Shown in pieces: positions 907 to 33,207 of a stretch of 45,379 nucleotides of DNA. The notes beneath the pieces were generated by a model. That model was not told the origin of the DNA and searched no databases. It saw nothing but the letters and a program-made list of their open reading frames with translations. Numbering within the stretch: position 1 is the first letter of the stretch; each line of letters starts with the position of its first letter. This DNA comes from a virus, in IMG/VR virus record IMGVR_UViG_3300045988_046206, positions 1-45,379 of that record. The stretch is one strand, 5' to 3'. The position numbers were made by a program, and so were the translations under genes.

Positions 907-984
907 ATACATCCTCCTGGTCGTGTTTATTGACCTGCCGCCGCAGGTAAATGGATTAAGCCAGTTAGACCACTGGCAGGGTAA

Positions 985-1056
985 GGAAATAAGGGGAATC
1001 GAACCCCTGACCAATATCCTATGCGGATACTGCTCTACCACTAGAGCTATATTTCC
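985..1056 (-). tRNA. tRNA with CAU anticodon (Met or Ile2 type) and a non-canonical anticodon loop CGCAUAG
   Basis: 72-nt cloverleaf folded by hand: acceptor GGAAATA/TATTTCC, D arm GCTC-TAGTGGTA-GAGC, anticodon stem GTATC/GATAT, variable TGGTC, T arm AGGGG-TTCGATT-CCCCT. No encoded CCA. Position 33 is G rather than the near-universal U. Confidence 0.8.
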
Positions 1057-1380
1057 ATAACCCGGATTCCCGGGTTAGCAAGGTATTTTACGTGCTATGC
1101 CTAAACACGAGACGTTTCGGGCTACGTCAACACCGCCTATACGGTCGCACACCTCTGCACGGGTTGAATTCCACTGTTCAGTTATATGCTCTCACAAGGA
1201 GGTATGCCGCCATGCACTAACGGCAATGGTACGCGTCGGAAATTGCATCCGCTTTTCAACCTCCAGATTCCGCTCGAACCTGTTTCTGTTAAGGACACGC
1301 ACCTGAGAAAGGAGGAATCAATGAAAAAAAATGTCTATGTCAAGTGGCTGTAACCACTTACGAATCTTCCCTATGAATAC

Positions 1381-1427: not shown

Positions 1428-1982
1428 TTAGAGCATATCCCGGAGTTTTTCCACGTATCTTTTAACAAGATCACGTTCCTCCCGGCATTCCGCGTCCTTG
1501 GACATATCGCTCATTTCTGTTGTGAGTTCATCCAGATGTTCTTCCAATGCGGCAAGCATCTTTCTTTTACAGTCCTCAGACTTGCCGGAACGATAGCTCT
1601 GTTTCTGTGTCATATAGTCGTCATAAGCATCCCGCCCGTCAGAACGGCTGTAATGTCCTCTGACATAATGCTCGCCACGTCTGGCATAAGAACTACCTCT
1701 GTCGTAATCCGGCATCATTCTGCCGTCATTTGCGCTGTATCTCCCCATGCTGTCACGCTTTCTTCCGCGTTCGCTGTAATCGTCATTGTATCCGCTACGC
1801 ATCTCATCAAGAACAGTGTTGTAATATTCCACTTTTTTGTCCCAGTAATACGTATTCTTGATATCTTTATACATATCAATCAGCTTGTATGTCATTTCCA
1901 GATTTCCTGTGGTCAGCCCACTGTCAGCGATTTTGGAAAGTTCGTCTTCAATTCTTGCACATAAGTCTTTAATGTCTCTCAT
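1428..1982 (-). CDS. Hypothetical protein, 184 aa, helical ends with an R/Y/D/S-rich low-complexity centre
   Basis: Track ORF 1428..1988. ATG at 1982 lies 7 nt after AGGAGG. No motif recognised. Confidence 0.7.
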   Translation of the reverse strand: MRDIKDLCARIEDELSKIADSGLTTGNLEMTYKLIDMYKDIKNTYYWDKKVEYYNTVLDEMRSGYNDDYSERGRKRDSMGRYSANDGRMMPDYDRGSSYARRGEHYVRGHYSRSDGRDAYDDYMTQKQSYRSGKSEDCKRKMLAALEEHLDELTTEMSDMSKDAECREERDLVKRYVEKLRDML

Positions 1983-1993
1983 AATCACACCTC

Positions 1994-2416
1994 CTACGCT
2001 TCTCTGGTCACGACAATGTTTGCGTTCGCAACAGAAATTGCCTGATCGCTAGTGTTCTCTACTGCGATATTAACGCAACATCCGCGAGGTACATCAATAT
2101 AGATGCCTGCGGACACATTGTTGTACTGATTTACTGCTGCCGGTGTGGAAATCATCTGGGAAGAAAGAACCGGCTCACCAGAGATTGCAATTGCCAGAGA
2201 AATAGCTCCGACAGTACCGCCTGTTGGAATTGCGATATTACCAGAAAAATCCACGAAGAATCTCGCTTTGCACTGATTAGTCAGTCCTCTCAGTGTAATA
2301 ATTCCGCTTCCCTCTCTGTGCTGAATGCAGTTAGAGCCTTTAACTGCTGTGTTTGAAAATACTACGTTTCCATTTGCTGCTACAGTCTGAGCAGCTACAT
2401 TTGTAAATTCTGCCAT
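1994..2416 (-). CDS. Hypothetical protein resembling BclA C-terminal / ExsFA-type (C1q/TNF-like jelly-roll) domains
   Basis: 140 aa of all-beta-looking sequence. It ends ...GIYIDVPRGCCVNIAVENTSDQAISVANANIVVTREA, like exosporium nap-protein C-domains. RBS is GAAAGGAG. The family call is by resemblance only. Confidence 0.45.
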   Translation of the reverse strand: MAEFTNVAAQTVAANGNVVFSNTAVKGSNCIQHREGSGIITLRGLTNQCKARFFVDFSGNIAIPTGGTVGAISLAIAISGEPVLSSQMISTPAAVNQYNNVSAGIYIDVPRGCCVNIAVENTSDQAISVANANIVVTREA

Positions 2417-2436
2417 AAAAATACTCCTTTCATATC

Positions 2437-2463
2437 ACAAAAGGACAGGTCTCAGCCTGCCCC
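2437..2463 (-). terminator. Putative rho-independent terminator (minus strand)
   Basis: Minus strand reads GGGCAGG-CTGAGA-CCTGTCC followed by TTTTGTG. 7-bp stem including one G-U pair, short T run. Confidence 0.4.
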
Positions 2464-2525
2464 TCTGTGTAATACGGCATAGCCGACATCCGAATCAATC
2501 GAAAGATACTCTCGATATGAAGTTG

Positions 2526-3305
2526 TTAGCAATTACATCCAGTGTTACATCCGCATCCGTAAAATGTGTTCGGATTAGGAACCTGATATGCCGGAATCGG
2601 TGCTGGATTAATCGCATTAATGAGCTGCTGTGTCTGTGAAGCCATTGCAGTTGTGATCAATGCGCTCTGGCGATCCTGAGATGCAGCACGTCTGAGATCA
2701 TTGTTCTCAGCCTGCAAACTAGAAATCTTTTCGTTACAAAGATAATCAAGAATGGCTCTTGTTCCAGCATTCTGGCTGTCAATGATATCTCTTGTGTTGC
2801 TGTTCATGGTGTTTTGCAATGCACAGGTATTCTGTGCCATATTGTAGTTTACGCCCTGGATAGCTTCCCGGGTTTCACAACAACAGTTCGCAAGCTGAGC
2901 CTGTAAAGCATTGGTATTCTGCATATTCGCCACAGTATCGGCATTAATAGCCTGCTGGATACCGAAACCAGTCTGCATGATATTTGTGTTGATTCCATTG
3001 AATCCGGTAAGCATACCGTTGTTCATGGCATAAAAGCCATCGCACAGGCCACTGTTGATTCCGTCAAGTTTGCTGATTACTGCGGAGTTATCGAATCCTC
3101 TCTGAATATCTGCCTGAGTAGCTGCTGTGGCCGCATATCCACCACCGTTGCCATTGTTGCCCCAGCCATTGTTTCCCCATCCAAAGAAAGCAAAAATAAA
3201 TAAAACAATAATCCACCAGCTACCGTCTCCACCGAACATGCCGTCATTGTTTCTACCATTTCCAGTAGCGGCGGCAATATCTGCTAAGCTATAATTTCCA
3301 TCCAT
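2526..3305 (-). CDS. Hypothetical single-pass membrane protein with Gly/Asn/Trp repeats, N/Q/T-rich coiled region and Cys clusters
   Basis: 259 aa. TM segment WWIIVLFIFAFFGW is followed by GNNGWGNNGNGGG. Internal CCC triplet (LANCCCETR). C-terminus is FYGCGCNTGCNC. RBS is AAAGGAGA. Confidence 0.7.
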   Translation of the reverse strand: MDGNYSLADIAAATGNGRNNDGMFGGDGSWWIIVLFIFAFFGWGNNGWGNNGNGGGYAATAATQADIQRGFDNSAVISKLDGINSGLCDGFYAMNNGMLTGFNGINTNIMQTGFGIQQAINADTVANMQNTNALQAQLANCCCETREAIQGVNYNMAQNTCALQNTMNSNTRDIIDSQNAGTRAILDYLCNEKISSLQAENNDLRRAASQDRQSALITTAMASQTQQLINAINPAPIPAYQVPNPNTFYGCGCNTGCNC

Positions 3306-3325
3306 AATATAATCTCCTTTTTGTA

Positions 3326-3353
3326 TATTTACATCAATCTGGCCAGATTGTAA
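3326..3353 (-). promoter_or_regulatory. Sigma70-like promoter (minus: TTACAA-16 nt-TAAATA) with a perfect 14-bp palindrome AATCTGGCCAGATT in the spacer
   Basis: Read directly. The palindrome is at 3336-3349. Sits ~20 nt upstream of the RBS of 2526..3305. Confidence 0.45.
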
Positions 3354-3357
3354 TGTA

Positions 3358-3579
3358 CTATTTCATTCCTTTCAACATGTGCTGAAACTGTCCTGCCATC
3401 TGCTGAACTTGATTGAGCTGTTGCTGCGAAATCTTCCCAGACTGTAACATCTTTTCAACTTCTGCTTTCGGGTCCCCCCTAAAATTCTGTTTAAACTGCA
3501 TAAACTGCTGTATCATCTGCATTGGTCCGTTTCCCTGTGGCATCCCACCACCAAGTGCGTTAAATAATGGATTACTCAT
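3358..3579 (-). CDS. Hypothetical Q-rich small protein (73 aa)
   Basis: Track ORF 3358..3585. The second ATG (3579) has better spacing, 8 nt after GGAGG. Sequence is MSNPLFNALGGGMPQGNGPMQMIQQFMQFKQNF... Confidence 0.6.
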   Translation of the reverse strand: MSNPLFNALGGGMPQGNGPMQMIQQFMQFKQNFRGDPKAEVEKMLQSGKISQQQLNQVQQMAGQFQHMLKGMK

Positions 3580-4042
3580 TTGCATTTCCTCCCTTGACTG
3601 CTGATTCCTGCACGGTATTAGCTCTAACAGGTTCAGAAAAAGAATTTAATCGGTTTATGATAGCTTCATATTTGCCTTTCAAATCATCGTATTCCTGTCG
3701 TGTGACATATTTACTGTCCATGTTCTGAACAGGCTGTTTAGGTGGCATCTGAGTACCTATTTCGTGATACTCAAACGTCCGTAATGGTTGTGGCATACCG
3801 GAAACGTCTGTGGATTTTATGTAGAACTTTTCGCTTTCACTGTCCATCAGTAAAACACTTGTTCCGGGTGCTACCAGATAGGATTTTGCGCCGACTTCGC
3901 CAGACACCCACAGGATACCATTGTTATTCTGCTGGGGTTGCTGTACTGGTTGAGCTGGCATCTGGACAGGCTGTTGCTGAAATTGATTCATCTGTCCCGG
4001 AACGCCAAAACTATATTGATAAGGATTGTTATATAATGCCAT
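3572..4042 (-). CDS. Hypothetical protein with Q/P-rich N-terminus and a compact beta-rich core (156 aa)
   Basis: Track ORF 3572..4051 begins at a GTG. The ATG at 4042 lies 8 nt after AGGAGG. No motif recognised. Confidence 0.65.
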   Translation of the reverse strand: MALYNNPYQYSFGVPGQMNQFQQQPVQMPAQPVQQPQQNNNGILWVSGEVGAKSYLVAPGTSVLLMDSESEKFYIKSTDVSGMPQPLRTFEYHEIGTQMPPKQPVQNMDSKYVTRQEYDDLKGKYEAIINRLNSFSEPVRANTVQESAVKGGNANE

Positions 4043-4056
4043 CTCGTACACCTCCT

Positions 4057-4104
4057 ATGACTTATTCTATGACTTATTCTATGACTTATTCTATGACTTT
4101 CTAT
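4057..4104. repeat. Tandem 12-bp repeat ATGACTTATTCT x3 plus one degenerate copy, abutting the RBS of 3572..4042
   Basis: Read directly: copies at 4057-4068, 4069-4080 and 4081-4092 are identical. Copy 4093-4104 is degenerate (ATGACTTTCTAT). Confidence 0.9.
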
Positions 4105-4119
4105 AGCTATATTTTTGCA

Positions 4120-4155
4120 TAAAAAAAGAACCGGAAACAGGTCGTTTCTGGCTCT
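4120..4155 (-). terminator. Rho-independent terminator (minus strand)
   Basis: Minus strand reads AGAGCCAGAAAC-GACCT-GTTTCCGGTTCT followed by TTTTTTTAT. Lies directly downstream of 4175..4375. Confidence 0.8.
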
Positions 4156-4174: not shown

Positions 4175-4375
4175 TCAGCACACTTTAATTATTTTATTGT
4201 TTACCCGTCGGCTCAATCGTTTCGCCGTAGATATGCTCACATTCATTTTCTCAGCACAGCATTCGAGAGTGTATTCTTTGCATCTCAGCCGAAACAGTTT
4301 TTCTTCGTCCGGCGTAAAATTACACTCTGTCAAGAACCTGTCTATATCTTTCTTCGTGAACACATATAACTTCAT
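4175..4375 (-). CDS. Small sigma-70 region-4-like HTH protein (66 aa)
   Basis: MKLYVFTKKDIDRFLTECNFTPDEEKLFRLRCKEYTLECCAEKMNVSISTAKRLSRRVNNKIIKVC. The pattern L..RE..vF.Lr...g.s..EiAe.l..S..TVk..l.ra..Ki is typical of region 4. ATG at 4375 lies 7 nt after AAGGGG. Confidence 0.55.
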   Translation of the reverse strand: MKLYVFTKKDIDRFLTECNFTPDEEKLFRLRCKEYTLECCAEKMNVSISTAKRLSRRVNNKIIKVC

Positions 4376-4395
4376 AAGCATACCCCTTACCAATG

Positions 4396-4701
4396 CTACC
4401 GTTGATTCTGCGCAAGATACTCCGTGAGCTTCTGTTTTGTTTTTTTTAACTCCTCGACATTATTCCCACTGATCTGACTGTCCAACATGGTCGACAACAC
4501 TTCCAGAATCAATGAATCACGCTCTGCAATCCTCTGGAGACTCTCGTAATCTCGTTTGTCATGTTCTTCCAGTGTCTCTACTCGCTTATTGAGGCGAAAT
4601 GCCGGTGTAATCCATTTAAAGATTACGGCTGCCGCTCCTCCGACAATAGACACCCCTCCGCAGATTGAAAGGAATATTTGTACAAATTCTGATATGCTCA
4701 T
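4396..4701 (-). CDS. Hypothetical membrane-anchored coiled-coil protein (101 aa)
   Basis: N-terminal TM segment FVQIFLSICGGVSIVGGAAAVIF followed by a charged helical region. RBS is AAGGAG. Confidence 0.7.
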   Translation of the reverse strand: MSISEFVQIFLSICGGVSIVGGAAAVIFKWITPAFRLNKRVETLEEHDKRDYESLQRIAERDSLILEVLSTMLDSQISGNNVEELKKTKQKLTEYLAQNQR

Positions 4702-4705
4702 TTAG

Positions 4706-5089
4706 CTACTCCTTTTCCCAGTAATATACCGGGATCTCATTACCGCTATCCCATGTATCGAAATATTTGCCCTCTTGTACTGCCACAACATGACCATCTA
4801 TGCAAAGAATGTATGTGCCTGTCGGATGGTCTGTGCAAAAGTCATTGACTGTATAGATATATCGTTCTGATTGTTCAATCAGTTTACGTCTGTACCCATG
4901 CTTATAAAGGTATGCTCCCCAGACATAATTTGCGCTTGGCATATCTGATAGAGAACACGCTTGTACCATTAGCCCGGCGAATACTGTTTCCCAGTCGAAG
5001 CCAGTTGCTTTGCATATTGCCCGGACAACGCAATCTCCTGTTCTCTTATCCTTAACAGGATTCGGATTGAAATATTCCCATCTATCCAT
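4706..5089 (-). CDS. Hypothetical protein, possible papain-like cysteine peptidase fold
   Basis: 127 aa. Candidate catalytic Cys lies in the motif NPNP...GDCVVRAI, with a later GH (CIDGHVVAV). Translationally coupled (TGATG) to the minor capsid gene. The function call is tentative. Confidence 0.35.
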   Translation of the reverse strand: MDRWEYFNPNPVKDKRTGDCVVRAICKATGFDWETVFAGLMVQACSLSDMPSANYVWGAYLYKHGYRRKLIEQSERYIYTVNDFCTDHPTGTYILCIDGHVVAVQEGKYFDTWDSGNEIPVYYWEKE

Positions 5090-6318
5090 CAGTCAATCCC
5101 CTTTGCTGTTTTATAACGTTTTGCCGCTCCTCTGGCTTTAGCAGCGTTCTGACGGTTCCACTTAGCAATCATGAGCCGGTCTTGCAGTTCTCTCAAGTCG
5201 TTCTGCTTGCAGTAATCTTTATATGCAGTATTTTGTTTCTGCAAAAGATAAGACTTCCGGTCAAGGTCTTGTTGGAGTGCGAATCTTGCCTGTTCGTCCT
5301 TGCAGTTGTCAACCGCCGCTTGCAACCCAAGGACTTCACGCTTCGTTTTGCGGATTCTTCGTTCATAAGTACGTTGTCGTTGTTCCTTTTCGTACTGTTT
5401 GCCTTTGTCGGTTTTATCCTGTGCTGATAATTCCGCATAAGGATTAAATTCTCCATCACTGGCTCCAAAGCTATGCCGACAGTTGACCCCTGACAATCCG
5501 CTTGCTGTTCCATACCCAGTCAATGAGAACGGCGGAAATTTCTTACTCTTGCCAGAACGAGAGTATATCTTGCCTTGCCAAAACGAGTGATTTCCCGGAT
5601 TCTCGCCGCCGTCACCCGTCCTCGCTCCTATGTGCGCACTGACCAGAACTAAATCCCAGTCCATTTCTTCCATGCGTTTTAGGGATATATCTCCCGTAGC
5701 CTGCGCCACGCCAGTTCTAACAGAACGTGCAACTGCGGTTTCGATGGTGTCTTTTCTGCCAGATGGATATGTGACAGTGACGCCATCTGATACAACGTTA
5801 TTGACTGCCTCTTTGATGGCTTGCGTATACCCAACTGCTCCAGTCATTACATGATTATAGGCAAGGTCGCATTGTTCGATATAGAGTCTCTGGGCGGCAC
5901 TTGCGGTTGTTCTCGTGAAGTTCTTCCACTCGCCCATGGTTGCAAGCATATTCCGCTCCATGAGCCTTATCATAGATGGTGACTGTTCGAGCGGTACAGG
6001 GCTTAATCCCGCCGCCTTATATACCTTATCATCATAGTTCATTGCAGTGATTCCGGCATCTTCAAACGCTTCAAGAAGCTCCTGCTGTTCACGTTTGGTG
6101 TATTTGGATAGTTCCGCTAGAATGTCTTCTAGTAATTCACCAGATTCCTGTAGTGTTCTGATTCTCCATACATCAGCGTTGGTCAGAATATAATCCTCAC
6201 CTCTGCCGATTCTTGCCATCATCCGAGACACGATCTCAGAGATGATATACTGATGCAGTTCTTCTGCAATTTGTTCACTGCCCTCTGTTATCCGGCGCAA
6301 ATATTCAGGACTAAGCAT
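5089..6318 (-). CDS. Minor capsid / head morphogenesis protein (phage minor capsid protein 2, SPP1 gp7-like)
   Basis: 409 aa. The N-terminus MLSPEYLRRITEGSEQIAEELHQYIISEIVSRMMARIGRGEDYILTNADVWRI matches the minor-capsid-2 pattern. Basic C-terminal tail. RBS is AGAGGTGA. Confidence 0.75.
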   Translation of the reverse strand: MLSPEYLRRITEGSEQIAEELHQYIISEIVSRMMARIGRGEDYILTNADVWRIRTLQESGELLEDILAELSKYTKREQQELLEAFEDAGITAMNYDDKVYKAAGLSPVPLEQSPSMIRLMERNMLATMGEWKNFTRTTASAAQRLYIEQCDLAYNHVMTGAVGYTQAIKEAVNNVVSDGVTVTYPSGRKDTIETAVARSVRTGVAQATGDISLKRMEEMDWDLVLVSAHIGARTGDGGENPGNHSFWQGKIYSRSGKSKKFPPFSLTGYGTASGLSGVNCRHSFGASDGEFNPYAELSAQDKTDKGKQYEKEQRQRTYERRIRKTKREVLGLQAAVDNCKDEQARFALQQDLDRKSYLLQKQNTAYKDYCKQNDLRELQDRLMIAKWNRQNAAKARGAAKRYKTAKGID

Positions 6319-6704: not shown

Positions 6705-8381
6705 TTAATTACACATTAACTCGGGTACATCAGCTAACGCTCTCATATATAAAGTTTTCGCCCCTAATTCTGTTGGATGCACCTTATCATCATTCAGCAT
6801 TCCATCATACCAACTTGCTCCGCTACTTTCGGCATTAACGCCCTTTGCGAAATCAATATATCTATAACCACTATTTCTAGCAATTTCATTTTTATATATG
6901 TGGTTTCGAATTGGCGTATTTGGAAATGTTGCAAGAATAAGTTCTATATTATTTTCTTCACATAATGTTTTAACTTTTTCGTAGTAGTCTGCCCATTGTT
7001 CGTTTACCGCATCTCCATCATTATCATTCATTCCCATGCACCAAATTATAGTTTTCGGATTACTATATTTTAGATTTTCGATAAGTGAAGTGTATGCTCC
7101 TGAAGATTTTCTGCCAGGAAAACCATCTAATAGGTTATTAGTGTACCCTGCTTTTAGCAGGTGTTTAGTCCATCTTGAGCTATCAATACAACTAAAATAA
7201 CTGTCTCCGTATAACTGAATATCTTTGAAAAATCCATCGCAACTCCATGATAGTATGCAATCATTAAACGCCCCATTTACTGATTCTACAAAAATATTTC
7301 CTTCATTTCCAAACCAATTCCAATCAGTATATTCGTATGATACACCTTGACTTTGAATAGTTATTTTTGGATTTCCATTTGCGTCAACGTCAATCTTAAT
7401 TTGTAAATCTTTTGTTATTGTTAATCCATGTTGTTTCGTTCTTAATAGCTTTGTCCCATAGTAGGTTCTTAATTCAGTATCAGTAACAACGATACTGTTT
7501 AAATTTTCTCCGTGTCCTATTTTAATTTCTCCCATTGCATCGAGATTACAAGCGAAAGATAAATGTTTCAATGTTAATATGTTAGGCACAAAAGTAGATA
7601 AGGTATTTCCAGTTGTCAAATTTCCACTAATTGAAATATTTTTAGATTTATTCGCATAGATTTTATCTTGTTTTTTAGAAATTGCATCGACTTTTTTATT
7701 TAGATTATTAAACCCTTTAGGCGTAATTGTGCTAACAGTTACAGTTCTCTTTACATAAAACTGTATATTATTTACAAACCGCATAAGGCAAGTTATGTAT
7801 AGATTATCTACGCCTGACGGAACGGTATAAAGTTCAGTATCACTTGAAATAGATGCAGAAGATACTCGATCTGTGCCATTGTAAGCATCAATGAATCTCA
7901 TTACTTGATGCGCGGAATCAATTATTGCAGTGATAATGTCACCTTCTTGCAAATTATCTAAATGGACATAGAAATAATCTGTGTTTGTATTTGGTTTGCC
8001 ATTCCAATAATAATAATTGATAGTTTTAATAACATTTTGCTCAATGTTATGTGTTTCTGTTTTCGTTTCTGCATCTGTGATAGCACTTAAATCTTCCTTT
8101 AGCGAACCAGTTTCCTCTTTCAGTGAAGCAACGTCTGTCTTGTTCTGCTCGATCTGCTGTGCCTGTTCTGTGGTGGCACCGGGCTTGACCGGGTTCTTTT
8201 CAAGGTACTCATTTACTGCATTCTTGATTTCTTCCGGTGAAATCTCACCGCCTATTCCTTTTAAACATAATTCGTATAAATACTTCTCTTTTCTCGTGAT
8301 TGGTTTCGGGAGTTCGCCCTTGTAATCACCTGTCAAGTACGCGAGATACTTTTCTTCCCTTGTTACTGGTTTATCTGCCAT
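6705..8381 (-). CDS. Fibre-like structural protein with C-terminal SGNH/GDSL hydrolase (esterase) domain
   Basis: 558 aa. N-terminal paired motif TREEKYLAYLTG / TRKEKYLYELC is common in Firmicutes phage fibres. C-terminal blocks are YGDSYFS, MGMNDN and DKVHPT (SGNH blocks I, III and V). Confidence 0.7.
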   Translation of the reverse strand: MADKPVTREEKYLAYLTGDYKGELPKPITRKEKYLYELCLKGIGGEISPEEIKNAVNEYLEKNPVKPGATTEQAQQIEQNKTDVASLKEETGSLKEDLSAITDAETKTETHNIEQNVIKTINYYYWNGKPNTNTDYFYVHLDNLQEGDIITAIIDSAHQVMRFIDAYNGTDRVSSASISSDTELYTVPSGVDNLYITCLMRFVNNIQFYVKRTVTVSTITPKGFNNLNKKVDAISKKQDKIYANKSKNISISGNLTTGNTLSTFVPNILTLKHLSFACNLDAMGEIKIGHGENLNSIVVTDTELRTYYGTKLLRTKQHGLTITKDLQIKIDVDANGNPKITIQSQGVSYEYTDWNWFGNEGNIFVESVNGAFNDCILSWSCDGFFKDIQLYGDSYFSCIDSSRWTKHLLKAGYTNNLLDGFPGRKSSGAYTSLIENLKYSNPKTIIWCMGMNDNDGDAVNEQWADYYEKVKTLCEENNIELILATFPNTPIRNHIYKNEIARNSGYRYIDFAKGVNAESSGASWYDGMLNDDKVHPTELGAKTLYMRALADVPELMCN

Positions 8382-29990: not shown

Positions 29991-30115
29991 AAAATACTTG
30001 CATCACAACTGAATAGCGAAGATGATGCGTACAACACACAAACCATATTGTATCATCTTCGGCTATTTTGGGCAATACAGAAAATTTGTTCACATTTCAA
30101 ACAAGGAGGAATATC

Positions 30116-31294
30116 ATGCCGAAGAAAAGAAAAACTTATCCAAAATTACCAAACGGATTCGGGAGTATCCGTTATCTTGGCAAGAACCGACGTAATTGCT
30201 ATGCCGTGCATCCACCGGCAACGATTGACGCATCAGGAAAAGCGATCCGCCCACCCGCGATCTGCTACGTTGACGACTGGCTAAAGGGTTTTGCTGTCTT
30301 AACTGCCTACAAAGCCGGAACATATAAGCCAGGAATGGAGAATGACCTACCTGTATCTCCTACCGCCGATACAGATACCCTTGTGAGCCGCATATTGGCT
30401 GATTACGGGACGATAAAAGGAGTAGAGGGTAAACATCCAGAGATTAAGAAATTAACGTTTGCAGAGGTATACGAACGGTTTATGGCATGGAAGTTCGCCG
30501 AGGGAACGACTTACTCAAAAGCAACGAAGTCAAACTATTCGGCATCCTATTCGTACTGCAAGCCATTGCACGACAGACCTTTTGAGGACTTAAAAGCTAC
30601 TGACCTGCAAGAATTTGTCGATAGTCAAAAAGGTTTTAAAAGAGGGAGTTTGAGAGTAATACTGGTGCTGTTTAACCAGATGTACAAATATGCGATGTAC
30701 GCTGAAATCGTATCAGAGAACAAATCCAGATACGTCAAGATAAACAAAGAGGACGACACGGAACATGGTACTGCATTTTCTGAACAGGAACTGGAAATCC
30801 TGTGGCAAAATTCAGCAGATTTTGACGTACAGTTAATTCTGATCATGTGCTATTCCGGCTGGAGAATCGGAGAAATTGAGAATCTGGAGGTTAATCTGGA
30901 TGAACGATATTTTAAAGGCGGCTCAAAAACAAAAGCTGGCAAAGGCAGGATCGTTCCTATACATCCGTGTATCTACGATTTTGTCAGAACAAGAATCGAA
31001 ACTGACGGAACTCTACTGAACATTAACAAGGTCACCTATCGGATGTACCGATTCTATCCCGTATTGGAAAAATTAGGAATAGTCGGAGATCCGAAGCACA
31101 CACCACACGATTGTCGGCACACATTTTCTGCTCTGTGTGAAAAATATTCCGTCAGAGAAAACGACAGGAAAAGAATGCTAGGACATGCATTTGGGAATGA
31201 TATCACGAACGCTGTATATGGACATCGAACAGTAGAAGAACTTCGAACAGAGATTGAGAAAATAGAAGTTCCGTTTGTGACTAACTGTGACTAA
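30116..31294 (+). CDS. int: Tyrosine integrase
   Basis: Track ORF trimmed to the ATG after AAGGAGGA. The C-terminal catalytic region is ...WRIGEI...HTPHDCRHTFSALC...LGHAFGNDITNAVYGH (R, H-x-x-R, H, Y). Confidence 0.9.
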   Translation: MPKKRKTYPKLPNGFGSIRYLGKNRRNCYAVHPPATIDASGKAIRPPAICYVDDWLKGFAVLTAYKAGTYKPGMENDLPVSPTADTDTLVSRILADYGTIKGVEGKHPEIKKLTFAEVYERFMAWKFAEGTTYSKATKSNYSASYSYCKPLHDRPFEDLKATDLQEFVDSQKGFKRGSLRVILVLFNQMYKYAMYAEIVSENKSRYVKINKEDDTEHGTAFSEQELEILWQNSADFDVQLILIMCYSGWRIGEIENLEVNLDERYFKGGSKTKAGKGRIVPIHPCIYDFVRTRIETDGTLLNINKVTYRMYRFYPVLEKLGIVGDPKHTPHDCRHTFSALCEKYSVRENDRKRMLGHAFGNDITNAVYGHRTVEELRTEIEKIEVPFVTNCD

Positions 31295-31572: not shown

Positions 31573-33207
31573 TTATACTTTTTTGATGTATTTCGCGGAA
31601 ACAAATCCGAAGTATTTTCCGGCAATACGGATGTAGTACCAAGAACTACCATCACTTGCTTTCTGAGTGAAGTTCATAACATCAACCTTGTTTCCTTTGT
31701 TCAATGTCGGATATTTTTTGATGTTCGGATATTCCGTTCCAGCCCATGTGCGGACGTTCAGGCTGGAAGCTGTAACCTGTCCAGTGTACAACCTCTGATT
31801 CTTGTCTTGCTTTTTGGGAATCGTTGTGGCTGTATTCTCTACTCCGTCAATCTTAAGATATTTTGTCGCAGCCCATCCAATGCCGATACCTGCAACTTTG
31901 ATTTTAGTCCACATTCCAGACTTCTCACCATTGATTTCAACACGGTTGCCTTTGTTAATCTTGCCAAGAACATATCCATTCGGCGTTTCACGGATATAAA
32001 GGTCGTCCACCGTAGATGTAGCCGTTCCGGTTGCTTTCCAAGTGGCTGTAGACGCTTTTTCTTTGCCCCAGTCAATCCAAACATATCCGTCAATTGCAGA
32101 ATCATTAATAGCGTAAACTTTATTGCGAACAGCTCCGCCATTTGCGACTACTCCAGCAGCACTGGAAGTATTTCCTTCATTGGTATAAACGATGCTGCCA
32201 TTGAACCTACGAACAGAGCCAACATGGGAACCGTTACGGAATATAATCAACGCACCTACTTTTGGTGATTTGTGCCATGTTCCATTAGCTTTGGCATGAT
32301 TTGTGATTGATACGCAATTGTAAAAACCACCGCCCATAATCTTTAATGCTCTGGCGATTCCAAGGATTTTTACCAGTTTCCAGAACTGATACTCTGCACA
32401 CCACGGCTGAGCCTGACAACCCGGCTGCCCCCAAGAATTTACATCACGGGCAAATTTGGTGTAGTTGTTATATCCGGCATTCTTCTTAAAATCGTCCAGA
32501 TAAGCATTGCTTTTCTTTTCAAGATATCCACCATTTGAGGCGTAATAATCTCCGAGTTCTGTAAATTTCTGTAATTTTGTTTTACTCACTGTTCCCTCTT
32601 CTTTCTTTTCCGTCCGATAATCCGTATAGAATACGTCCATATCAACGTCATTCGCACTGATTCCTTCTACTTTTCCACTCTCTGAATACTGCCAGCCTAT
32701 GCCAACGGACGGTCTGAGCCGTTCTGGAATAGTCCCGTTGTCATTATTCGCATAACTTGCAAGCCAGAGGTCATATTTCTTGAGGTTGTCGGACAGGTAA
32801 TTATTATACCAGTCCATATTGCAATAGATACCAACTTTATAACCGGCTTTTTTCATTCTAGTCAAGAATGATACCGCAATATTCTCGATTGCCTGTTTTC
32901 CAAGGCTTCTCTGCTGTTTCCATTCGAGATCGTAGAATACTGGAAAGTCCAGTCCGCGTCCGTTCAGTACTTCGATCACGTTCTCAGCTTCTTCAACAGC
33001 TTGTGCCGGTGTTAAGGCATAACTGTATTTGTATACCCCTGCCAGAATACCGCTCTGTTTACATCCTTTATAGTTATGTTTAAACGAGGAATCTACGCCA
33101 TATCTCTGATGGACTCTGAGGATTGCTGCTTTTACGCCGGATTTTGCGACTTTTGCCCAATCTGGTTTGCCTTGATCTGACGATACATCAATTGCTTTGA
33201 TTTCCAT
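31573..33207 (-). CDS. Endolysin: GH25 muramidase + CHAP-like peptidase + two SH3b cell-wall-binding domains
   Basis: 544 aa. GH25 region: IDVSSDQGKPDW...DLEW...WQYSE...DMDVFY. CHAP-like region: QPWCAEYQFW...GSHVGSV...TNEGNTS. Two C-terminal SH3-like repeats (LYIRETPNG..., LNVRTWAGTEYP...). Confidence 0.85.
   Translation of the reverse strand: MEIKAIDVSSDQGKPDWAKVAKSGVKAAILRVHQRYGVDSSFKHNYKGCKQSGILAGVYKYSYALTPAQAVEEAENVIEVLNGRGLDFPVFYDLEWKQQRSLGKQAIENIAVSFLTRMKKAGYKVGIYCNMDWYNNYLSDNLKKYDLWLASYANNDNGTIPERLRPSVGIGWQYSESGKVEGISANDVDMDVFYTDYRTEKKEEGTVSKTKLQKFTELGDYYASNGGYLEKKSNAYLDDFKKNAGYNNYTKFARDVNSWGQPGCQAQPWCAEYQFWKLVKILGIARALKIMGGGFYNCVSITNHAKANGTWHKSPKVGALIIFRNGSHVGSVRRFNGSIVYTNEGNTSSAAGVVANGGAVRNKVYAINDSAIDGYVWIDWGKEKASTATWKATGTATSTVDDLYIRETPNGYVLGKINKGNRVEINGEKSGMWTKIKVAGIGIGWAATKYLKIDGVENTATTIPKKQDKNQRLYTGQVTASSLNVRTWAGTEYPNIKKYPTLNKGNKVDVMNFTQKASDGSSWYYIRIAGKYFGFVSAKYIKKV

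Follow-up and report, generated by a model that had tools for sequence, protein, structure and literature searches.

What are five compositionally odd genes doing between the minor-capsid and scaffold genes of a temperate phage? The question is raised by IMG/VR virus record IMGVR_UViG_3300045988_046206, whose whole stretch of 45,379 nucleotides (called the window below) is the complete, circularly permuted genome of a temperate siphophage (integrase, endolysin, tail genes, major head protein). Comparison with other phages shows that the five genes, g1 to g5, form a self-contained accessory cassette which is exchanged horizontally among gut Bacillota phages and is not a head-assembly function. 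They are listed below with the start codon read from the sequence as the ATG proximal to the ribosome-binding site (RBS).

3572–4042, minus strand: g1, 156 residues
3358–3579, minus strand: g2, 73 residues
2526–3305, minus strand: g3, 259 residues
1994–2416, minus strand: g4, 140 residues
1428–1982, minus strand: g5, 184 residues

A preliminary description, made from the sequence alone, had given these genes the same place and lengths, and all of the protein features it named are present in the translations. Its account of the flanks was equally accurate, since minor capsid gene, tRNA-Met and scaffold gene were all found. Landmark genes of the window are as follows.

5089–6318: minor capsid protein (PF06152, E = 5e-74)
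984–1056, minus strand: tRNA-Met(CAT), between the insertion and the scaffold gene (ARAGORN; Rfam tRNA, 50.8 bits)
274–900: scaffold protein (PF06810)
30068–31294: integrase
31573–33207: endolysin, with a 142-residue open reading frame (ORF) beside it

The odd composition attributed to the proteins is borne out by g2 (21% Q, 13% M), g3 (14% N, 10 Cys) and g5 (13% D, 11% R, 9% Y). It is limited to the proteins, the G+C content of the block (0.42–0.48) being like that of its flanks (0.42–0.46). The g3 protein of a Lachnospira intestinalis prophage is 79% identical to that of the window, and the host is probably Lachnospira or another member of the Lachnospiraceae.

A mobile cassette of gut Bacillota phages

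ORFs were called in the loci fetched (184 in iterative searches) and iterative profile searches were run. Loci are labelled by L-numbers, among them Dulem virus 35 (L001), Clostridium perfringens phage HMD-PC1 (L002) and the Lachnospira intestinalis prophage (L004). A scan of viral contigs with the window g3 returned only phages that were 98–100% identical. In about 20 divergent loci the same order was found: g1, a small Q/M-rich protein, g3, g4 or a Cys-rich substitute, and g5 or an R/Y/D-rich protein. The cassette loci belong to divergent Bacillota-type phages and prophages, with records labelled Lachnospiraceae, Clostridia, Bacilli, Selenomonas, Anaerovibrio and others. Their genomic neighbourhoods differ.

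Window and Dulem virus 35 (L001): head module
C. perfringens phage HMD-PC1 (L002): early region, after an antirepressor and before Gam and recombinase
Butyrivibrio phage Ceridwen: between endolysin (followed by two small ORFs) and XRE/antirepressor
L004: early region, before an antirepressor
L013: before a Holliday-junction resolvase
L019: after a tail fibre gene
L010: after a DNA methyltransferase

Non-structural regions hold the cassette in L002, L004, L010, L013 and L187, and g3 in L185, so that no position in the head module is common to all relatives. Ceridwen, which carries the full cassette, is reported to be lytic and has no integrase.

The site in the window is itself polymorphic. Judged by the minor head protein, the closest cultured relative is Blautia phage Montmirail (54.6% identity), with the order terminase, portal, minor head protein, a 40-residue ORF, scaffold and major head protein. 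Montmirail contains neither the cassette nor a 558-residue gene found in the window, and Roseburia phage Jekyll is arranged alike. Compared with these two phages, the window is longer by about 4.1 kb between 5089 and 984, a stretch that holds genes for 127, 101 and 72 residues, the five-gene block, a RAGATH-21 RNA and tRNA-Met. The accessory insertion probably exceeds the 1428–4155 interval first assigned to it and reaches roughly from the 127-residue gene (4706–5089) to the tRNA (984). The proposal that the block is an inserted accessory module and not core morphogenesis was examined by this presence/absence comparison and holds: the block is absent in Montmirail and Jekyll, and elsewhere its positions vary. 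Polymorphism at one site together with different sites elsewhere is the behaviour of a moron or mobile cassette. As in phage morons, the insertion lies between genes that are adjacent in relatives and the genomic position is variable; on its upstream side a terminator and a promoter-like motif are seen. Unlike morons, the cassette comprises five or six genes in strongly conserved order, has conserved internal RNA elements and does not deviate in G+C content from its surroundings. No known moron function matches it.

Outside the Bacillota-type phages only g3 was detectably shared. In many crAss-like phages it has other, non-homologous neighbours, and in Bacteroides phage C3_41T2LP it stands with different partners after RecT, resolvase and HmuI. 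Because the crAss-like neighbours are not homologous, the five-gene unit holds for Bacillota-type phages only, and the idea that the whole unit is common to crAss-like phages was dropped. Genes of the g3 family were also seen in NC_092586.1 (vir215) and BK063680.1 (vir335), two Caudoviricetes whose records name Methanomassiliicoccales as the host; the vir215 gene lies between a reverse transcriptase and an integrase, and one of the two is annotated phrog_16490.

Neither the family libraries nor the literature that could be searched gave an earlier description of such a system, and no virion proteomics of cultured carriers was found. We regard the cassette as new as a system, a status that rests on gene linkage and predicted structures. 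Its single families already exist as unnamed PHROGs, and g1, g2, g3, g5 and the 127-residue protein are without characterised relatives. What had been six ‘hypothetical proteins’ becomes one defined, conserved and mobile cassette that can be studied as a unit, to which one predicted fold, an anchor architecture and mapped conserved cis elements can be assigned. Carriers already in culture are Butyrivibrio phage Ceridwen, several Clostridium perfringens phages, HMD-PC1 and vB_CpeS-17DYC being two of them, and Bacteroides phage C3_41T2LP.

Upstream of g1–g5 lie the portal gene, the 558-residue gene, the minor capsid gene and the genes for 127, 101 and 72 residues, in this order. The 558-residue gene (6705–8381, minus strand), between portal and minor capsid genes, has a low G+C content (0.29–0.35 versus about 0.43). 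Its product has no PHROG match, and its C-terminus resembles GDSL/SGNH esterases at 31 bits, just below the Pfam cut-off of 32.9. The corresponding portal and minor head protein genes of Montmirail are directly adjacent. This gene looks like a second, separate insertion.

Predicted anchor, jelly-roll and partner proteins

Pfam and NCBIfam gave no matches for g1–g5 (for g4, none at E ≤ 0.1 and E ≤ 1, respectively), and single-sequence searches of PDB sequences (phmmer for g4) gave no relevant match for g3 or g4. The sole match in a PADLOC scan of the five proteins and their neighbours was ZorA (E = 0.005) over the g3 coiled coil, which is regarded as coiled-coil noise. For each of the five proteins there is a PHROG of its own, to which no function is assigned; the E-values span 1e-26 to 2e-62 (g1, phrog_21718, 2e-38; g2, phrog_22984, 1e-26; g3, phrog_16490, 2e-58; g4, phrog_20016, 4e-61; g5, phrog_28802, 2e-62).

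The g3 family, which has no assigned function, is very large, and its carriers include some of the human-gut phage genomes that are assembled most often, those of crAss-like phages among them. At 50% identity it comprises 2,132 clusters (E ≤ 1e-3) among 1.84 billion representatives, and more than 8,000 clusters at 90% identity were present among the candidates scored. Nearly all full-length members among 150 listed are 230–300 residues long. The window g3 contains GWGNNGWGNNGNGGG, a CCC triplet and the C-terminal GCGCNTGCNC. In an alignment of 56 diverse members the CCC triplet is invariant; a Gly/Trp-flanked hydrophobic segment, the motifs SQ..Q and PxPxPAY and a tail of the CGC type are also conserved, and the window g3 ends in PxPxPAY and a CGC..GCNC tail.

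An AlphaFold2 model of g3 was built on this alignment. It shows a helix at 30–41, corresponding to the hydrophobic segment, a disordered Gly-rich linker, a single continuous helix at 73–232 and a disordered Cys tail; the predicted local distance difference test (pLDDT) exceeds 85 for approximately residues 150–240. The layout is thus a short acidic N-tail, a Trp-flanked transmembrane segment, a Gly/Asn/Trp linker, a long helix that bears the invariant CCC and a Pro/Cys-rich tail, and g3 is predicted to be a bitopic membrane protein. At 1.5 Å per residue, the helix of about 160 residues would measure an estimated 24 nm if extended. Foldseek returned no PDB match for the model, as expected for a lone long helix with a predicted template-modelling score (pTM) of 0.31. 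The g3 profile had no PDB match either, and a Pfam scan of the 56 relatives gave sporadic matches only.

The orientation of g3 in the membrane can be judged from the same 56 relatives. The hydrophobic core is about 14 residues long and bounded by Trp and Gly. The preceding N-tail of 25–35 residues is acidic, with a mean of 0.9 K/R versus 3.3 D/E, and each protein has 6–18 Cys residues in its C-terminal part. Bacillota tend to keep Cys out of exported proteins. By eye, no N-terminal hydrophobic signal-type segment was seen in g1, g2, g4 or g5. The acidic N-tail, the Cys content and the partners without a visible signal segment indirectly favour a stalk in the cytoplasm, and most likely the N-tail is outside.

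Three further observations concern g3. In P0184, a 399-residue protein of the representative library, a GDSL/SGNH esterase domain is linked to approximately the first 178 residues of a g3 homologue, comprising anchor, linker and the helix as far as CCCETREAIQGINYN; the protein is either a genuine fusion or a chimera produced by assembly. It was also considered whether the 127-residue enzyme might cleave a double-glycine leader in g3, an idea set aside and kept only as a lead: in the FGG that precedes the transmembrane helix G25 hardly varies, but the remainder of the leader consensus does not fit. The idea that g3 is the phage holin was also set aside, as the endolysin is about 28 kb away with a 142-residue ORF beside it; no PHROG or Pfam match of g3 to holin or spanin families was found.

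For g4 a structural assignment could be made. The AlphaFold2 model (62 sequences) has a pLDDT of 90.9 and a pTM of 0.83, and its ten-strand jelly-roll can be superposed on the BclA C-terminal domain (CTD), ExsFA and C1q heads. The best PDB match by Foldseek is the F-BclA C-terminal domain (9h38; E = 6e-8; template-modelling (TM) score 0.73–0.77), accompanied by ExsF (9h3d), BxpB (8d02) and ExsFA (7r1m) with TM 0.75–0.77. EDA-A1 (TM 0.69), BclA (1wck) and C1q heads are also among the top matches; all of these matches have a probability of 1.00. The resemblance of g4 to BclA-C/ExsFA (C1q/TNF-like) domains, suggested before from the letters, is thereby confirmed at the level of the model. Sequence identity to the structural matches is only 12–16%, and Pfam, NCBIfam and phmmer against PDB did not place g4 in PF18573 (BclA_C) or a related model. 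We regard g4 as a predicted stand-alone TNF/C1q-like jelly-roll, a sequence-remote new member of the fold class; by its sequence it is not a BclA_C family member. Many phage proteins of g4 size and fold, some named ‘BclA protein’, are present among the viral structures of BFVD. The conserved Cys residues of g4 are C30, C49, C113 and C114.

The comparison with exosporium proteins can be extended to the system as a whole. The g4 model shares the jelly-roll of BclA-CTD, ExsFA, BxpB and ExsF (PF18573; 1wck, 7r1m, 8d02, 9h38, 9h3d) and g4, at about 140 residues, stands alone as ExsFA/BxpB does, instead of forming the head of a longer chain. In the ExsF/BclA system Pro-rich terminal peptides of stalk proteins are captured by ExsF trimers and the BclA N-terminus is trimmed by proteolysis; in the cassette, g3 is a stalk protein whose end is rich in Pro, and one gene is peptidase-like. 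Unlike that system, the cassette is phage-encoded, g3 is also found in phages of non-sporulating hosts, and the g3 stalk is predicted to be α-helical and membrane-anchored. No GXY repeats were found in the cassette proteins, and there was no match to the exosporium leader (TIGR03720) or other NCBIfam models. TNF-superfamily ligands such as EDA-A1 (type II) follow the same logic of N-terminal anchor, extended stalk and TNF-like jelly-roll. In the cassette, unlike EDA-A1, anchor-stalk (g3) and jelly-roll (g4) are two polypeptides and the membrane orientation may be reversed; in the absence of a sequence relationship this likeness is an analogy and not membership.

In some cassettes the g4 position is taken instead by an unrelated family of Cys-rich, β-rich proteins, located as listed below. 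Its members start with MSCxxxCxLC, contain NGCKYCIVVAQ and have no Pfam match.

L002, 5494–5853: Cys-rich g4 substitute
L008, 2825–3220: Cys-rich g4 substitute
L016, 9584–9985: Cys-rich g4 substitute
L017, 2477–3004: Cys-rich g4 substitute
L103, 8867–9229: Cys-rich g4 substitute

The remaining partners are of low complexity. g1 consists of a Q/P/N/Y-rich, disordered-looking N-terminus, a small conserved core, a C-terminal coiled-coil segment and a basic tail. In some 20 divergent loci a g1 homologue precedes g3 at a distance of two genes, and the g1 family profile gave only coiled-coil noise against PDB. The start of g2 overlaps the stop of g1, as read from the sequence. A small protein rich in ‘NP..MQ’ is always found between g1 and g3, the divergent ones reaching hhalign probabilities of up to 77–90%. 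g5 has an R/Y/D/S/G-rich centre with a conserved HYVRGHYSR, flanked by N- and C-terminal segments. Its homologues, or R/Y/D-rich analogues, lie 3′ of the gene in the g4 position in many loci; in some a DUF7841 protein takes this place, and it was observed to have an R/D/Y-rich N-terminus.

A sixth, loosely attached member of the cassette is probably the gene at the upstream edge of the insertion.

4706–5089, minus strand: 127-residue Cys-His-Asp protein (match to phrog_3754 only)

Among 11 diverse sequences of this family N8, N10, D19, C20, R23, A24, H100, D111 and D114 are invariant. Cys, His and Asp therefore occur within about 120 residues in the order canonical for papain-like cysteine peptidases (clan CA, C39-type) or transglutaminases, and from this residue pattern the protein is a putative small enzyme. 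None of the 11 members has a Pfam match, and the family profile found none among PDB sequences. A homologue often accompanies the cassette: it is located directly upstream in L008, L015, L020 and Ceridwen, upstream with regulators in between in the window, L001, L010 and L011, and directly downstream in L013, L016, L017 and L019. In L004–L006 a small HExxH protein replaces it.

Candidate transcription signals and RNA elements

The preliminary description had also assigned the block its own transcription signals. The elements now recognised are these.

4121–4155, minus strand: intrinsic terminator closing the upstream operon (−12.7 kcal/mol, z = −4.4, then U7)
4111–4123, minus strand: post-terminator motif TTTATGCAAAAAT (the exact match is unique in the window)
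4055–4099, minus strand: 12-bp tandem array GTCATAGAATAA (Tandem Repeats Finder: 3.8 copies, 100% match)
3326–3353, minus strand: apparent g2–g3 intercistronic stem-loop with AATCTGGCCAGATT, then TGTAAATA (−7 kcal/mol, z = −1.7, weak alone)
2436–2488, minus strand: g3–g4 cis element (small hairpin, GTATTAC, 14-bp GC-rich hairpin and U-run before the g4 RBS)
4175–4393, minus strand: 72-residue sigma-70 region-4-like helix-turn-helix protein (weak matches)
4396–4701, minus strand: ORF for a 101-residue protein (no family match)
1228–1303, minus strand: RAGATH-21 RNA (Rfam RF03097; 90.6 bits versus a gathering score of 70.3, E = 8e-18, full-length)

The strong terminator reported at 4120–4155 is real: none of 200 shuffled sequences folded as well as the hairpin at 4121–4155. 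Hairpin and T-run are kept in near-identical relatives, and equivalents are present in L001 and L005. Downstream of the terminator and upstream of g1, the context ATGC(A/C/G)AAAAT..TAAT recurs in L001, L004 and L005; in most near-identical relatives the motif reads ATG(C/T)AAAAATATAATCAGAAAGG and continues into TATAAT and then the RBS. The TTTATGCAAAAAT region is on these grounds a candidate cassette promoter. It may be served by the 72-residue protein, a candidate activator by its weak matches to Sigma70_r4 (E = 0.013), TIGR02937 (E = 1.7e-4) and phrog_1190 ‘RNA polymerase sigma factor’ (E = 9e-7). Homologues of the 72-residue gene lie upstream of g1 in L001, L005, L010 and L011, and those of the 101-residue gene adjoin it in L010, L011 and L021.

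Two of the proposed signals had to be reinterpreted. The 12-bp array is present between the promoter-like motif and the g1 RBS, but it is not a conserved signal, being absent in most of the near-identical relatives listed and present in about 1–6 copies in others (the array-bearing site was compared in L021–L100, with g3 98–100% identical). It behaves like a hypervariable, slippage-prone expansion beside the g1 RBS, and a role as operator was set aside because the array is absent or variable in near-identical phages. Similarly, the palindrome AATCTGGCCAGATT exists, but the TTACAA-16-TAAATA promoter thought to enclose it in its spacer is not the one preferred by a consensus promoter scan, which selects TTGAAA-17-TACAAT at 3375–3347. 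Since L001, L008, L009, L010 and L013 have hairpins at this place too, with stems of other sequence, AATCTGGCCAGATT looks like an intercistronic stem-loop and not an operator in a promoter spacer. RNAalifold found no consensus for these hairpins, whose alignment was out of register.

The hairpin noted before g4 recurs in divergent cassettes. The g3–g4 element has a folding energy of −22.6 kcal/mol (z = −5.9), and its sequence (GTATTAC ... GGGCAGGC) is kept in L001, L004, L005, L009 and L011, where g3 and g4 are about 45–85% identical to those of the window. A pattern search of all sources gave 84 matches, 82 of them 0–300 nucleotides after g3, one being the window's own copy at this place and one stray. 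More distant cassettes have an unrelated hairpin and T-run between g3 and g4. No Rfam family corresponds to the element, which is probably an attenuator or an RNA-stability element, and a likely reading is that g1–g2–g3 are expressed above g4–g5. The element is also listed for L010 and L021, and its small hairpin appears to have a compensatory change (CGGC/GCCG versus CTGC/GCAG).

Directly 3′ of g5 no terminator was found; the RAGATH-21 RNA and the tRNA come next, the former at the downstream border of the insertion between g5 and tRNA-Met. In Dulem virus 35 (L001, 8008–8084) a RAGATH-21 RNA is located directly 3′ of g5 and before the scaffold gene, and in L009 (4803–4878) upstream of tRNAs. 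In the literature that could be searched, RAGATH-21 was not found mentioned. Another structured RNA, Clostridiales-1 (RF01699, 146.9 bits), lies on the minus strand of L004 at 7851–8019, about 1.1 kb upstream of the cassette.

Possible function of the cassette

We tentatively read the cassette as a mobile unit that builds a membrane-tethered complex, a reading that we consider quite possible, if short of an even chance. In this model g3 would provide a Cys-stabilised coiled-coil stalk, g4 trimers a cap or adaptor, g1, g2 and g5 further adaptors, and the Cys-His-Asp enzyme would carry out trimming or cross-linking. Upon infection or induction, the cassette would be transcribed from its own promoter just downstream of the terminator, with g1–g2–g3 made in excess and g4–g5 lowered by the hairpin 3′ of g3. 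g3 would enter the cytoplasmic membrane with its acidic N-tail outside and its stalk in the cytoplasm, and oligomerise to a coiled-coil stalk held by its cysteine clusters. The partners, which have no visible signal peptide, would gather on this stalk; g4 trimers could form a cap or adaptor, the part that ExsFA plays for BclA, while g1, g2 and g5, all of low complexity, could serve as glue or adaptors, and one component would be trimmed or cross-linked by the Cys-His-Asp enzyme. The outcome would be a membrane-tethered protein structure in the infected cell, possibly of benefit by organising a step at the membrane or by excluding other phages. In this model the cassette and its mobility are observed, the g4 fold and the g3 architecture predicted, and the protein contacts, topology and purpose inferred.

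The g4 cap can be put in concrete terms because the ExsF trimer holds the Pro-rich leader peptides of BclA and F-Anchor in inter-subunit clefts, and because BclA is trimmed, residues 1–19 being cleaved off (PMC12357932). For the stalk, a known arrangement may serve for orientation.

The membrane organiser p16.7 of phage phi29 begins with a transmembrane helix, continues as a coiled coil and ends in a functional domain; it tethers phage processes to the membrane. Like p16.7, g3 has an N-terminal single transmembrane helix, followed under the favoured topology by a coiled coil that would extend into the cytoplasm. Neither in sequence nor in fold does g3 match p16.7; it has twice the length of p16.7 and carries a Cys/Pro-rich tail instead of a DNA-binding domain. 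p16.7 also works without a multi-gene cassette.

A more specific version of the membrane-tethered complex joins several claims, and together they are improbable. It would be a supramolecular device not described before and very widespread in gut phages, comprising a membrane-tethered, Cys-cross-linked g3 stalk or fibre, a g4-trimer cap or bridge, the prion-like and R/Y-rich g1, g2 and g5 as builders and a papain-like maturase. The whole would be a viral counterpart of the BclA–ExsFA nap, assembled inside infected cells, with g3 common to phages of Bacillota and Bacteroidota and possibly to viruses of methanogenic archaea.

Several observations weigh against the model of a membrane-tethered complex as such. 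The g3–g4 contact is drawn by analogy only, and the Pro/Cys tail of g3 was found to be the same whether g4 or the Cys-rich substitute follows, so that co-variation lends no support to docking of the tail on g4. The g3 model is of low confidence overall (pLDDT 68, pTM 0.31), and a clear positive-inside signal is absent from g3 in the 56 relatives. The P0184 fusion, if real, would fit an outward-facing g3 C-terminus. By hhalign, the crAss-like neighbours of g3 showed no homology to g1, g2, g4 or g5. Finally, the 127-residue family extends to phages without the cassette, so that its distribution among phages is wider and its linkage to the cassette occasional. Examples are Geobacillus phage GBK2, Lak megaphages of Prevotella and Bacillus Tsamsa-like phages, in some of which the protein is annotated ‘putative peptidase’.

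Should a membrane-tethered assembly be true, phages would build an intracellular structure of a new kind. A virion fibre, if that is what the products form, would represent a new type of fibre, one anchored hydrophobically. Either outcome would account for a conserved block of viral ‘dark matter’.

The fibre is the alternative that fares best, and we judge it unlikely. Here g3 would form a trimeric coiled-coil fibre attached to capsid, neck or tail by its N-terminal region, with g4 as distal TNF-like knob and g1, g2 and g5 as assembly chaperones or adaptors. The location of the cassette inside the head module and in the same orientation in the window and L001 speaks for it, but most of the Bacillota-type loci sampled lie among early, recombination, regulatory or post-lysis genes, and in C3_41T2LP g3 follows recombination genes. 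In crAss-like phages g3 is just upstream of capsid genes and named ‘spike protein/glycoprotein’ or ‘outer capsid protein/viral fiber’; these annotations are names alone. TNF/C1q-like knobs are common at fibre tips, and the Foldseek matches include a cyanophage short-tail-fibre domain and a phage protein named ‘fibritin neck whiskers’. Missing signal peptides are normal for virion proteins, and an expression design of high g3 and low g4 would suit a stalk with a tip. However, a fibre would not usually have a conserved hydrophobic segment flanked by Trp and set in Gly-rich sequence, and prion-like and R/Y-rich partners together with a papain-like enzyme are atypical of fibre chaperones. Decoration of the capsid by the cassette is likewise unlikely, because the cassette is independent of position and g3 has a predicted membrane anchor.

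It is rather improbable that the cassette serves superinfection exclusion or inter-phage conflict, the g3 complex blocking DNA entry, aborting competitors or countering a host membrane defence. Such a role would fit the accessory behaviour (mobility, presence/absence polymorphism, candidate transcription signals of its own), the g3 membrane anchor and the frequent location beside antirepressor, methyltransferase and other accessory genes; the candidate promoter and the small sigma-like regulator could free expression from the late operon. Against it, exclusion proteins as known are mostly encoded by single genes that evolve fast and are specific to a lineage, whereas the cassette has five or six strongly conserved genes whose motifs are invariant across phyla. 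Phages for which only lytic growth has been seen carry the cassette too, and PADLOC gave no match save that to ZorA (E = 0.005) over the coiled coil.

We consider it very unlikely that the cassette is an accessory to lysis or egress, with g3 as a holin-like or holin-regulating protein whose partners tune lysis timing. The single-transmembrane architecture of g3 is compatible with this, T4 holin T having one transmembrane helix and a large C-terminal domain. Two neighbourhoods also point this way: the Ceridwen cassette comes after the endolysin gene and a pair of small ORFs, and in crAss cr116_1 the g3 locus is about 1.5 kb downstream of annotated holin and L,D-carboxypeptidase/transpeptidase genes. 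Most loci, however, have no lysis genes nearby, the window endolysin and its 142-residue ORF are about 28 kb distant, and the cassette is dispensable in related phages.

Remodelling of the host envelope or spore surface from the prophage (lysogenic conversion), the other function that had been proposed, has very little probability left: although the g4 fold is closest to exosporium BclA-CTD, ExsFA and BxpB, Cys-rich g3, R/Y/D-rich g5, Q-rich g1/g2 and the Cys-His-Asp enzyme recall coat chemistry (of the Tgl/GerQ and CotG type), the window phage is temperate and its likely host family includes spore formers, there is no exosporium leader, collagen repeat or Pfam BclA_C match and by eye no secretion signal on g1, g2, g4 or g5, whereas g3 occurs in crAss-like and Bacteroides phages of non-sporulating hosts, the full cassette is carried by the integrase-free, reportedly lytic Ceridwen, and the TNF/C1q fold is widespread in viruses generally.

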